Shown here in pieces: positions 28,866-32,030 of a DNA stretch of 39,130 bases. Position numbers and translations under genes: made by a program. Positions within the stretch are counted from its first letter, which is position 1, and every line of letters starts with the position of its first letter. This DNA is from a virus. Lineage: Duplodnaviria > Heunggongvirae > Uroviricota > Caudoviricetes. Below the pieces are notes generated by a model that saw nothing but the letters and a program-made list of their open reading frames with translations, had not been told where the DNA came from and ran no database searches. The DNA is taken from positions 1-39,130 of the IMG/VR virus record IMGVR_UViG_2563366972_000008. One strand, written 5' to 3'.

Positions 28866-29257
28866 CGCACCACCTCCTGAAAATTACCCTGATAAAACGC
28901 CAGTACGCGCTGCATAGCTTCGCTCTTCCGGCACTCGCTACAGATTATGTTCTGACGCCTGTCGTAGCGGCGTATTTCTCCGTCTGGTAACTTTCGAATC
29001 AGTGTCAGGTCGGTTCTTTTCTCCGGTGTCTTACGCCATACGCGATACGCCTGCTCTGATGCAAAAACACCGTATTTACCGGACATGTATAAATCGCCAC
29101 AAGCCAGCACATCCACAAGGCAGCGTCGAACCGAATGCCAGCCTGCTCCCGTCGCTCTCTCCAGCTGTGACATCGTCATGCGTCCATTTTTGCGTACCAA
29201 TCCGATAATTCGTGCCTTCAGCTCTTCCCGCTGTTCGAGAGAAAAAGGTTTCGCCAT
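28862..29257 (-). CDS. Hypothetical protein
   Basis: ORF from ATG 29257 behind an AGGAGG RBS, immediately downstream of the P-like gene. Confidence 0.55.
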   Translation of the reverse strand: MAKPFSLEQREELKARIIGLVRKNGRMTMSQLERATGAGWHSVRRCLVDVLACGDLYMSGKYGVFASEQAYRVWRKTPEKRTDLTLIRKLPDGEIRRYDRRQNIICSECRKSEAMQRVLAFYQGNFQEVVR

Positions 29258-29287
29258 AAATCCTCCTGAAAAAATCACCTTCACAAT

Positions 29288-29953
29288 TCATACAAAACCA
29301 GCCGCTTTCCGGCGTTCATACTCCTGTTTCAGCAACTCAATTGGTGTTGGCCCCGACGGGCGTTTTGGTGCTGCCAGTTGCCGCCGTACGGGCGGAACGC
29401 TGAAGCCGTCACCAACATGCTTTGCCCATTTCGTCAGTTGCCGTTCTGCAAGCCGTTTTAACTCCCCTTCGGTCATCTGGCGCTCAATCCCCTTTGAACG
29501 CATCTCGAGGCAAATGTGATACAGCACAGGCTGAGGCCACGGATATTTATCGCTTCCGTCGTATCGCCAAGACTCATTGCGCCAGCGTCGGTACTCCTCC
29601 ATCACAGCATCCACCGTCAGACCGAATGGATTGGCCCCGCTTTCCGAAATCAGCGCCACAAACTCAGCCAGGTCCGGAGGCCATGTTTCACCTGCCCTGC
29701 AACGGTCCATGCACTGGCGGCAGACCTGCCGGATTTGCTGCTCAGTCATCGCGCCAATCTGTGCAATCCAGAGCTTCGAAGGTGCGGCCCCGTTCTTCTG
29801 GGTCCAGCGGTTCGAATAAACCTCCCCCATGAGTTCCCACAGCTTCCAGGCAGTTTCCGTCGTTGATAAATCCGTTTTCACGCTCCCACCGCTCACGTGC
29901 TGCCCGAATTTCCTGAACTGCCCGTGATGCGGTGCCACCTGGTGCTGCTGCAT
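29288..29953 (-). CDS. Replication protein P-like (helicase loader)
   Basis: C-terminal half resembles lambda P as recalled; position downstream of the O-like gene. True start probably internal. Confidence 0.65.
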
Positions 29954-30782
29954 GGTTTACCCCCTTGCTGACTGGTTTAGCCTGCGCCCTGACGTGATTT
30001 ACGTGACGGGCGAATTTCTGCTCCCACTGAACCTGCGTGAAAACTTTACCCTCCGCTGCCCAGTAGTCCCGGAAGGCGGCAAGTTCAGCTGGTGTAAATT
30101 CCGGCTCCGGCAGAGCCACTCCCCACAGAGCCGCCCGTCGTCGAAAATCCGGCGACGGATGCCAGCCATCGGTCATCGGAAATTTCCCGATGGGTTCGCT
30201 CAGGCCTTCCAGGTAATCAGGTTCCGCTGTTTGCAACGGCACGCCATTTGCCTCACTGGTCGGAGCACTCTCGCGCACGCGCGCGTTATGTGTGGGGTTT
30301 AATTCTTTATCTGTATCTTTATCTGTCGTGACTCGTCGTGACATGTCGTGACATATGCGTGACTCGTCGCGCCCCCCCTCATTCTGTTTTCGTAATTTTT
30401 CCCTCTCGCGCTGCGCTCTCTTGCGCTCTGCCGGGGATTTCGCGGTTTGTGAAACGTTGCCATTGTCCTCTTTCAGTACCTGGCGTTTTTCCCATCCACT
30501 GATCAAATCTCCATCAAGTACCCGCCCCTGCATTGCCTGTAAAATTGAATCAATTACTTCTTCCGTCACATCAAGCGCACTTGCTAAATCTTCCGCCGTG
30601 ACATCAATGTGACCACGTAGTGACACGCCGTGACATGTCGTGACATTTCGTGACGCGCTCACCAGAAGGTGGATATACACAGCCATCACTGTTGCGATTG
30701 GCTGTCCTGACACCCTGGAAATTGTTCGCCACTTAGGATCGTTTGGCATGTCATGCCATAATCTGAGCCAGGCGTTAGCCAT
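29742..30782 (-). CDS. Replication initiator / replisome organiser (O-like) containing origin iterons
   Basis: ORF from ATG 30782 behind a GAGGTGAG RBS; two clusters of 10-bp-phased GTCGTGAC repeats lie inside the coding sequence, as oriLambda lies inside O. Confidence 0.7.
30326..30364. repeat. Iteron cluster 1: four phased GTCGTGAC(AT/TC) repeats next to an AT-rich CTTTATCTGT duplication
   Basis: gtcgtgac at 30326, 30336, 30346 and gcgtgac at 30357; ctttatctgt repeated twice just upstream. Confidence 0.7.
30609..30654. repeat. Iteron cluster 2: five phased (C)GTGACA repeats
   Basis: gtgac at 30609, 30620, 30630, 30640 and 30650 with about 10-bp spacing. Confidence 0.65.
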
Positions 30783-30852
30783 ACTCACCTCTTCTGATAC
30801 CGAATCTTTTACTCACGAATTGCCGGAAGCGATCCGGTATGAATATTGTCAG

Positions 30853-31278
30853 TCAATGCACAACCACAATATTTCCCGCCGGGCCACCACGATTCATCTG
30901 GTTGAAACCAGCGATCGCCACTGCGACAAAATCATCAGCGTCTCTCACCAGTCGTTCCCGCGTCTCCACCAGCTCCCGAAAATAGGCTGAACTGTGGCTG
31001 CGCATTCGGGCCACCAGCAGAGGTGGCATTGCTTTTTCGATCGCTGGTAACAACGCCTGAATTTTTTTAACCGCATCAGGGGTGTCTTTATCCAGCCAAC
31101 GGAAAATTTTCTGGGTATTACGAGCCAGCGCTTCCGGATGGCTGTCGTCATATAGCTCCGGGAACGTCATACCCAGCTCAAAATAAGCCCGGGTTATTTC
31201 AGCTGCCGGAACTTTTTCACCGTCCGGATGCGCCCAGGCATTCATCGCCATACGGATGTGTTCATGCTTGATTTTCAT
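30853..31278 (-). CDS. CII-position regulatory protein (YdaT-like, putative)
   Basis: 141-aa ORF immediately downstream of and overlapping the cro-like gene, upstream of the replication genes. Confidence 0.5.
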   Translation of the reverse strand: MKIKHEHIRMAMNAWAHPDGEKVPAAEITRAYFELGMTFPELYDDSHPEALARNTQKIFRWLDKDTPDAVKKIQALLPAIEKAMPPLLVARMRSHSSAYFRELVETRERLVRDADDFVAVAIAGFNQMNRGGPAGNIVVVH

Positions 31279-31537
31279 GAATCAACTCCGGTGTATTTGG
31301 TGTGTTAGCCTTATCTCCAGCAGGCAACCCGTCAGTTGGATTCGGGTATAAATCTGGTCGCAATTCATGAGGAGTAACCCCAGTTGCAATATAAATTTGA
31401 CGAACCCGTTCCCCCGTCGGAACTCGACCATTGTATTCATTTGCCCATTTGTGTATTTGAGATGGCCAAGCCCCTATTGCACGCCCTAGCGGACGAATAC
31501 CACCAGCAATCTTTATTGCTTTGTCCAATGCTGTCAT
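31262..31537 (-). CDS. Cro-like HTH regulator (YdaS/Cro family)
   Basis: 91-aa ORF divergent from the repressor gene, with HTH-like segment and GGAGG RBS. Confidence 0.7.
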   Translation of the reverse strand: MTALDKAIKIAGGIRPLGRAIGAWPSQIHKWANEYNGRVPTGERVRQIYIATGVTPHELRPDLYPNPTDGLPAGDKANTPNTPELIHENQA

Positions 31538-31562
31538 ACAACCTCCAGTTCAACTAACCACA

Positions 31563-31634
31563 ACAATTGTTCACTTAAAACGAACATAAGTCAACACCTC
31601 GAGGAATTGTTAGTGTTCACTGAACGGTTATAAT
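31563..31634. promoter_or_regulatory. Immunity switch: two related operator-like sites overlapping divergent promoters
   Basis: Site A ACAATTGTTCACTTAAAACGAACA and site B GGAATTGTTAGTGTTCACTGAACGG share AATTGTT...GTTCAC; plus-strand TTGTTA-16-TATAAT ends 6 bp before the repressor ATG; minus-strand TTGACT -35 element. Confidence 0.5.
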
Positions 31635-31640
31635 TGCTAA

Positions 31641-32030
31641 ATGGACATGAGAAAAAAGCAATACGACACCCCGCTAGCAGAAAGGTTAGATGCGATCTCT
31701 CAACAGCATCATTTAAGTGGTTCAGATTTAGCGCGTATCGCTGGTGTAGGTCGTTCATCAGTCAACGCATGGAAAAAAAGAGGAACAATCAGTAAAGATT
31801 CCGCAGCCAAAATTGCAGAAGCCACAAACGTTTCCCTTTCTTGGCTACTGACAGGGAAAGAAGAGACAAATAGAGAAGCGCTTGATGATGACGAGAAGGC
31901 CCTGCTTGATGTTTACAGAAACCTGCCACCCGTAGAACGTAGAAATATGCTGGCAGCTTTTCAAATGCGACTTCAAAAACTGACCGAATTTTACTCAGAA
32001 TACGTCGACCCAATAACACGACAAAAATAA
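31641..32030 (+). CDS. HTH_XRE repressor (DicA/CI-like)
   Basis: 129-aa ORF with HTH (LSGSDLARIAGVGRSSVNAWKK), divergent from cro-like gene, heading the ydfABC-dicB-like operon. Confidence 0.75.
   Translation: MDMRKKQYDTPLAERLDAISQQHHLSGSDLARIAGVGRSSVNAWKKRGTISKDSAAKIAEATNVSLSWLLTGKEETNREALDDDEKALLDVYRNLPPVERRNMLAAFQMRLQKLTEFYSEYVDPITRQK

Follow-up and report, generated by a model that had tools for sequence, protein, structure and literature searches.

Two phased repeat arrays within a replication initiator gene: a probable lambdoid prophage origin

The DNA studied here, IMG/VR record IMGVR_UViG_2563366972_000008 from a tailed phage of the class Caudoviricetes (the whole stretch of 39,130 nucleotides is called the window below), carries on its minus strand the gene of a replication initiator, inside which a short repeat recurs in two separate clusters. 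What is such a repeat doing inside a coding sequence, and why does it occur twice? An earlier note on the same sequence had proposed a probable origin, placed in its initiator gene as oriLambda is placed in gene O. This proposal is now strongly supported by the comparison with relatives, by constraint acting on the DNA, by an unstable duplex next to one of the clusters, and by the presence of a P-like loader gene. We estimate at roughly three in four the probability that a lambdoid prophage has its replication origin here, within the gene of its own initiator, with the second cluster serving as an auxiliary binding array.

Two repeat arrays, a single unwinding element

The features needed for the description are the following.

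29742-30782, minus strand: replication initiator ("replisome organizer") gene, 346 amino acids from the ATG at 30782; the open reading frame reaches a GTG at 30788
30327-30363, minus strand: array 1 (linker array), four GTCACG cores, seen as GTGAC at 30328, 30338, 30348 and 30359
30368-30374, minus strand: decayed fifth (promoter-proximal) unit of array 1, GGGCGCG vs TGTCACG in most close relatives
30597-30654, minus strand: array 2 (upstream array), six GTCAC(G) cores, seen as GTGAC at 30598, 30609, 30620, 30630, 30640 and 30650
30565-30569, plus strand: single inverted copy of the core, gene-downstream of array 2, in codons DVT
30297-30327, no strand: AT-rich putative DNA unwinding element, with two copies of the 11-nt TCTTTATCTGT; encodes DKDTDKE
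30266-30296, no strand: GC-rich element flanking the AT tract, with the alternating palindrome CGCGCACGCGCGCG, a stem, at 30272-30285

The repeat unit reads GTGAC on the plus strand, that is GTCAC, usually GTCACG, on the gene strand. Successive cores are 10, 10 and 11 bp apart in array 1 and 11, 11, 10, 10 and 10 bp apart in array 2 (plus-strand order, reversed in the gene sense). All ten share one orientation, and 239 bp separate the two arrays. An 8-mer, GTCGTGAC, is found exactly on the plus strand at 30325, 30335, 30345 and 30637, and with one mismatch at 30595, 30617, 30627 and 30647; the conserved element is shorter than this 8-mer, and is limited to GTGAC, or GTCAC(G) on the gene strand. 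The helically phased repeats described by the earlier note, in two clusters inside the initiator gene, were thus recovered as ten cores at 10-11 bp. Its count of four repeats holds for array 1; array 2, to which it gave five, has six, starting at 30595, ahead of the range 30609-30654 given in the note.

Ten same-strand copies of the core in 361 bp compare with about 1.0 per kb elsewhere in the window, and no further cluster of at least three copies was found across its 39 kb. In 300 dinucleotide-preserving shuffles, the GTGAC word reached at most 5 copies in any 361-bp span, and the maximum for any 5-mer, over 100 shuffles, was 7 per 361-bp span. As these counts lie far below the observed 10, a chance origin of the repeats is excluded.

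The single inverted core matches the position, at about nt 186 of the gene, where an inverted core is found in most loci of the clade sharing GTCACG (other clades, with other cores, are described below). In the GCAACG and GTGACG clades an inverted core copy stands right at the end of array 2. A palindrome, TGGCATGTCATGCCA, was also seen near the 5′ end of the initiator gene (30744-30758, codons LWHDMP), and its centre, ATGTCATG, is one base off an iteron with its spacer, ATGTCACG. It could be an extra, operator-like site for the initiator; it could equally be the mere reflection of a conserved peptide.

The AT-rich duplication that had been noticed beside array 1 is indeed present: TCTTTATCTGT occurs twice, at 30304-30314 and 30316-30326, 12 bp apart and adjoining the array. 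By nearest-neighbour calculation, 30297-30327 is the least stable 30-bp duplex of the interval 29200-31700, which covers replication and immunity genes, promoters included (dG -32.7 vs a mean of -43.4), and it falls within the top 0.16% of instability across the window. In the gene sense, the order is array 1, AT-rich 12-bp repeats, GC-rich element. The sequence of the GC-rich element is also present in Rac-SA53 ydaU and in TL-2011b, with other N-terminal domains, and it may act as a boundary or clamp of the unwinding element.

As explanations for the two clusters, either two initiator-binding arrays or a duplicated origin had been put forward. In a duplicated origin each array would work independently, with an unwinding region of its own, and the 30-bp duplex that ranks third in instability here, 30532-30562, does lie gene-downstream of array 2. 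However, this AT-rich patch is not kept in relatives from GC-rich hosts. Among 28 loci with both arrays, duplex stability over the first 800 nt was lowest within 65 nt downstream of array 1 in all 28, and beside array 2 in none; the best window there had a median rank of only top 6%. Furthermore, array 1 is found alone in many relatives, and the upstream array alone was scored in just one of the distant loci presented below. We concluded that there is a single unwinding element, at array 1. The stability analysis (28/28 vs 0/28) led us to reject the duplicated origin, which is very improbable, and two arrays fit the data.

DNA-level constraint and switching of the core

Constraint on the arrays was estimated from an alignment of close relatives containing 50 unique sequences (IMG/VR loci L012-L091, Evi and 606R7). 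Variable sites amounted to 2 out of 50 in the iteron cores, 18 out of 43 in the spacers between cores, and 119 out of 377 at the other sites of the module; among other third codon positions, 77 out of 125 (62%) varied. The cores differ significantly from the spacers (Fisher test, p = 8e-6) and from the other third positions (p = 1e-13). Seventeen of the 50 core sites are themselves third codon positions, and a single one of these varies. While the spacers of 4-5 nt drift (ACGA, ATGA, CATAT, ACGT, CATCT, ACAA), GTCACG is fixed.

Could the repeats nevertheless have no function as DNA, and simply result from a repeated peptide or from chance composition? The encoded segments (NVT..RGH..DVT and ESR..CH..SR..VT) are conserved as peptides within the GTCACG clade, that of array 2 highly so. 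However, a period of 10-11 nt places successive units in different reading frames, where they specify different residues: translated in all three frames, the cores of the arrays give SR, VT and CH/GH. Cores read in three frames do not make a peptide repeat. To this are added the third positions of the cores, of which 1 in 17 varies vs 62% elsewhere, the change of peptide frame by frame when the core switches (VT/GH/SR to AT/GN/QR, see below), and the shuffled sequences, which never approached the observed number of cores. A repeated peptide motif was the very explanation that the earlier note had set against its own proposal; the use of three frames, the constancy of the third positions and peptide changes that differ by frame led us to reject it, and we consider it hardly conceivable. 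The repeats are constrained as DNA, not as peptide.

Changes in copy number also respect the unit, as they involve whole 10- or 21-nt units. In Evi and its close relatives, for instance, array 2 is two units (21 nt) shorter. Written as array 2 + array 1, the copy numbers in 79 close loci were 6+5 (57 loci), 6+4 (15 loci), 4+5 (3 loci), 6+6 (3 loci) and 5+3 (1 locus). The window is of the 6+4 type because the array 1 unit farthest from the AT tract, at 30368-30374, has decayed. In the sub-lineage of the window this unit is hypervariable (GGGCGCG, GGCCACG, GGGCATG, GGTCATG, GCGCGCG), and the other units are intact. Decay of the distal unit fits what is reported for lambda, with four iterons, and for Stx phages, with six, where the distal iterons matter less (PMC7466680).

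More distant homologues of the N-terminal domain (57-64% identity) were found in Pseudomonas phages Marin and phita81A and in Aeromonas phage pAEv1818. They have GTCACG arrays at both gene positions (4+4 and 4+3 copies), with an AT- or purine-rich tract after each array. In Ralstonia phage Hennie, at 37% identity, both array positions are occupied by GCAACG, a core also found in relatives of Hennie. A distant set was then made of 80 IMG/VR loci ranked by similarity to Hennie, 76 of them unique, and phased words were searched for in zone A (nt 90-320) and, independently of it, in zone B (nt 320-560), an array being defined as at least 3 copies. Zone B, the position of array 1, had an array in 73 of the 76 unique loci, and both zones had one in 38. 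The core was scored as common to both zones in 37 of these 38, a few of the matches involving loose, low-copy zone-A words; for arrays of at least 4 copies the cores agree cleanly between zones. The sole discordant locus, L104, has the shared GTGACG in zone B as well.

In the first 620 nt, the most frequent 6-mer was, depending on the clade, GCAACG, GTGACG, GAAACG, GTCACG, GAACGC, AACGCC, GTAACG or GTCCCA, and it was rare elsewhere in each distant locus. GTGACG and GAACGC were met in IMG/VR clades, and GTGACG clades reach about 11+7 copies. Each switch of core rewrites the peptides of the three frames: VT, GH and SR for GTCACG, AT, GN and QR for GCAACG, VT, GD and CD for GTGACG, and ET, GN and KR for GAAACG. 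In clades with 10-11 array 2 units the protein loop is correspondingly longer, and the short-loop members ctOK67 and Mwe-JY25 have no array 2. The core thus changes identically in both arrays across clades, and the two-array layout, which had been held to be unusual, is a recurrent feature of the family, not a peculiarity of the window. Gaps between the arrays were mostly 209, 219, 229 or 239 bp, a 10-bp lattice with a mean resultant length of 0.52. The count was made on related sequences and includes some stray core matches. It is only suggestive of a fixed helical relation between the arrays, which would be compatible with looping.

The initiator, its loader and the exchange of its N-terminal half

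Two further features of the minus strand concern the proteins.

29979-30182, minus strand: coding region of the DnaT-like single-stranded DNA (ssDNA)-binding domain, amino acids 203-270 (Pfam PF17948, E 2e-18)
29288-29749, minus strand: lambda-P-like helicase loader gene (PF06992 Phage_lambda_P, E 6e-16, 59 bits vs a cutoff of 26)

Homologues of the initiator begin at the ATG 30782, with MANAW. The protein matches PHROG 1408/3729, "replication initiation protein", and weakly PHROG 4880; at NCBI its relatives are labelled "phage replisome organizer" or "DnaT-like ssDNA-binding domain-containing protein". It consists of a helical, winged-helix-like N-terminal domain, a disordered linker and a DnaT-like ssDNA-binding domain. 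The gene had been called O-like. No homology to lambda O was found: searched against Pfam at E up to 0.01, the whole initiator matched PF17948 alone, and neither Phage_rep_O nor PF09681; the N-terminal 135 residues alone, searched at E up to 10, belong to no family and gave only a sub-threshold match to HTH_Crp_2. The C-terminal half, for its part, contains the DnaT-like domain. The modelled domain superposes on 4ou6 (E. coli DnaT 84-153 with ssDNA) with 59% identity, a template modelling (TM) score of 0.89 and E 9e-6 in Foldseek, and the range for 4ou6 and 6aeq is 58-60% identity and TM 0.86-0.94. The full-length DnaT family, NCBIfam NF002770, scored 97.8 bits vs a cutoff of 201, over profile positions 81-167 only, and the N-terminal two thirds of the initiator are unrelated to DnaT. 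The 59-60% identity to the DnaT ssDNA-binding domain suggests that the phage captured a domain of the host primosome. We propose that this domain holds the melted strand or connects to the helicase-loading step.

In an AlphaFold2 (AF2) model of the initiator, where the helices have a predicted local distance difference test score (pLDDT) above 80, the N-terminal domain starts with helices at residues 2-14, 16-25 and 29-45. These are followed by a loop at residues 46-62, with confidence below 50 at 52-58, which is encoded by array 2. Next come helices at 63-70 and 74-84, a hairpin at 88-95, a low-confidence segment at 97-111 (pLDDT below 50) and a basic helix at 117-135. Residues 138-192, encoded by array 1 and the AT tract, are almost wholly of low confidence, and the DnaT-like domain occupies residues ~200-270. 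Array 2 encodes a 19-residue loop within the N-terminal domain, and array 1 encodes 13 linker residues, ~140-153. Judging from this model, both arrays would encode loop or disordered segments able to tolerate a sequence dictated by the DNA.

The loader also matches PHROG 109, "P-like helicase loader", and is annotated "replication protein P" by PGAP in the closest E. coli genome. In that gene model its start overlaps the initiator stop by 8 nt (29742-29749, ATGACTGA), which suggests that loader and initiator are translationally coupled. A longer open reading frame of 221 amino acids, 29288-29953, is probably not the real loader gene.

The initiator gene is a mosaic, which megablast splits at 30304-30324. 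Its C-terminal half is shared with Rac-SA53 ydaU (94% identity) and TL-2011b (84%), whose N-terminal domains are unrelated and in which no GTCAC array was found. Its N-terminal half is 85-86% identical at the DNA level to phages Evi, Tritos and others, whose C-terminal halves are unrelated. Downstream partners vary as well among array-bearing relatives, being a P-like loader, a DnaB-type helicase or a primase-helicase. The N-terminal domain is therefore the sole part of the protein that is consistently associated with the arrays, which is supporting evidence, not proof, that it binds them.

Another protein might bind the arrays, either a YdaT/CII-like regulator encoded upstream or the terminase small subunit, in which case the repeats would mark a packaging site. 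A YdaT-like gene stands immediately upstream, not only in the window but also in Marin and pAEv1818. Direct repeats spaced by 10 bp within coding regions are targets of CII-type activators, and repeats of 10-bp period also occur at pac/cos sites. Against this, a YdaT-like neighbour was detected in only 5 of the 80 distant loci (by phmmer, of limited sensitivity), though nearly all of them carry arrays. The arrays follow the initiator N-terminal domain through the mosaic exchanges, and a consensus scan for an internal promoter detected no promoter-like site in them. Finally, arrays of 4 to about 11 copies at an inter-domain linker, with an AT-rich tract behind them, fit the architecture of an origin, not that of a two-repeat activator site. 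A binder other than the initiator is accordingly most improbable, and the YdaT/CII-like candidate was disfavoured on the 5/80 count.

The mosaic junction, 30304-30324, coincides exactly with the AT-rich repeat tract. Repeats resembling GATAAAGATACAGAT recur at the junction position in initiators with unrelated N-terminal domains, from different hosts, and the AT-rich tract may double as a recombination joint. In the initiator of Escherichia phage TL-2011b (L003, 2840-2867 and 3049-3076), a 28-nt repeat, 89% identical and containing GTAACGC/GCGTTAC, occupies two sites 209 nt apart, one in the part coding for the N-terminal domain and one in the linker ahead of an AT-rich tract. As this N-terminal domain is unrelated, a second family has two sites in its initiator gene, and the bipartite layout may be more general.

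Proposed mechanism, related origins and surrounding operon

That the initiator is the binder, that the origin fires, and the role of array 2, are what we infer from the sequence, and the following steps are proposed. Array 1 and the adjacent 30-bp AT-rich tract would form the core origin. The initiator, through its N-terminal helix-turn-helix-type domain, would bind the cores on one face of the DNA and build a nucleoprotein array. The AT-rich tract would then melt, aided by transcription passing through from the early promoter, and the C-terminal DnaT-like domain together with the P-like loader would deliver the host DnaB helicase to the melted region. Array 2 would be an auxiliary array for the same initiator, without an unwinding element of its own. 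Its lack of such an element, and its absence from about half of the family, are the reasons for considering it auxiliary. Its probable contribution is to increase the occupancy by the initiator locally, to form a loop with array 1, or to give replication a direction by serving as a barrier.

A related alternative keeps array 1 as the origin and makes array 2 a regulatory roadblock, used either for autoregulation of initiator and loader transcription or as a fork barrier (for unidirectional replication or the theta-to-sigma switch), as proposed for gp38 at SPP1 oriR. Early transcription has to pass through array 2, about 130 nt from the start of the gene, and no unwinding element adjoins this array; that it is missing in about half of the relatives is also what one expects of a modulating element. 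In SPP1, a stalling of forks by the initiator bound to the second array was proposed (PMC6316719), and oriL gives unidirectional theta replication (PMC5737612). The 10-bp lattice of the gaps hints at a fixed helical relation that a pure roadblock would not need, although this hint is weak, given that the sequences are related. Taken as a complete account, the roadblock is rather unlikely; as to the role of array 2 itself, the sequence favours neither a roadblock or fork barrier nor an auxiliary assembly array, two equally plausible roles that are compatible with each other.

Several points weigh against an origin with an auxiliary array. About half of the distant relatives do without array 2, so that it is not required for the basic mechanism. 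The high conservation of the array 2 peptide leaves room for some selection at the protein level on this segment. The N-terminal domain is encoded by the same DNA as the arrays, and their co-inheritance is therefore in part simple linkage, which is no proof of the binder. In the searchable literature, we found no binding, autonomous replication or mapped initiation site for this initiator family. No DnaA box, IHF core or GATC cluster was found in 29600-30900, save for one GATC; the missing DnaA box and IHF core were counted here as well, yet they are neutral for an origin of the lambda type. The origin of the family and its two-array layout were not found described in the searchable literature either, the coverage of which is incomplete, so that an earlier description may exist.

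How does this putative origin compare with known ones? In oriLambda of lambda and Stx phages, O forms the O-some and loads DnaB together with P. As there, the putative origin lies midway in the initiator gene, where the linker joining the DNA-binding N-terminal domain to the loader-connecting C-terminal domain is encoded, the gene of a P-family loader comes next, iteron number varies between relatives, and the N-terminal domain and iterons are exchanged as a module. Lambda iterons are about 19 bp long, have an internal dyad symmetry and are about two helical turns apart, whereas the units of the window are 6-bp cores with variable spacers of 4-5 nt and a period of 10-11 bp. The order is shared too, iterons coming first in the gene sense and the AT-rich tract on their promoter-distal side (PMC7466680). 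Lambda iterons are elsewhere described as ~20-bp repeats (PMC8022706). Unlike lambda O, of which it is not a homologue (no Pfam match for its N-terminal domain), the initiator of the window has a DnaT-like C-terminal domain, and there is a second array, ~240 bp upstream, in the part coding for the DNA-binding domain.

In Bacillus phage SPP1, gp38 binds direct repeats inside gene 38 (oriL), beside a DNA unwinding element, and also binds a second array, oriR (PMC6316719). Repeats and unwinding element within the initiator gene are common to both systems, and the family of the window's initiator bears the NCBI name "phage replisome organizer" and has the weak match to PHROG 4880; as to a second array of the same repeats, the resemblance is partial. 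The differences are that the second site of SPP1 is ~13 kb away and has its own AT-rich unwinding element, instead of 239 bp away in the same gene and without one, and that the initiator of the window does not match the gp38 family, PF09681 Phage_rep_org_N. In Salmonella phage L, which is P22-like, six imprecise 11-bp repeats in gene 18, TGTCCAACGGA, have been proposed, from sequence analysis alone, to be an origin (PMC8022706). In both cases the initiator coding region thus contains short repeats that recur about once per helical turn; in phage L the repeat is a different one (TGTCCAACGGA), a single array is described, and the partner is a DnaB-type helicase instead of a P-type loader. Two separated arrays of the same initiator-binding repeat are also known in satellite phage P4 (ori/crr) and in iteron plasmids that have a second iteron array, such as P1 (incC/incA). 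P4 crr is needed in cis, and P1 incA controls initiation by looping or handcuffing. These systems differ from the window by their initiator families, by longer iterons (P1), and by arrays that lie outside or flank the initiator gene.

A more elaborate proposal, which we offer as tentative and which is possible but less than probable, is that of a truly bipartite origin. Array 2 would have come to lie in the coding sequence of a tolerant loop, in the DNA-binding domain of the initiator itself, ~22 turns from array 1, and would co-evolve with array 1, both arrays building a looped complex or a directional barrier to forks or transcription. The core positions G-N-N-A-C-G (GTCACG, GTGACG, GCAACG, GAAACG, GTAACG) would be a specificity code that keeps co-resident prophage replicons orthogonal.

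Most origins of temperate phages are unannotated, and a simple sequence rule would now assign a defined position to that of a widespread initiator family, present in many E. coli/Shigella prophages, including those of O157, and in phages of Pseudomonas, Aeromonas, Chromobacterium, Bordetella and Ralstonia. The family offers natural initiator/iteron pairs differing by 1-2 bases in a 6-bp core, which are of use for studying the evolution of origin specificity, the compatibility of prophage replicons, and orthogonal replicons. Moreover, the binding sites here impose the residues of loops in the very protein that is their proposed binder. The conserved array 2, finally, raises a testable question, namely how auxiliary initiator arrays act.

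The region is the early right operon of a lambdoid prophage. Upstream of the initiator are a YdaT-like gene and a YdaS/Cro-like gene, and a divergently transcribed gene for a CI-like repressor. The genes at the cII and cro positions, 30853-31537, belong to families annotated "YdaT toxin" and "YdaS toxin"; in this setting they resemble the usual early regulators of lambdoid prophages.

Interrupted copies of the initiator gene were met among database homologues and in two loci (L172, 1982-3021, and L010). Many NCBI homologues are "partial", on short contigs, and in the closest complete E. coli genome the initiator copy is annotated as a frameshifted pseudogene. This suggests assembly breaks or sequencing errors near the initiator, or frequent inactivation in resident prophages. 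In phage 204576 the frameshift stands ahead of array 1, and the iterons are intact.

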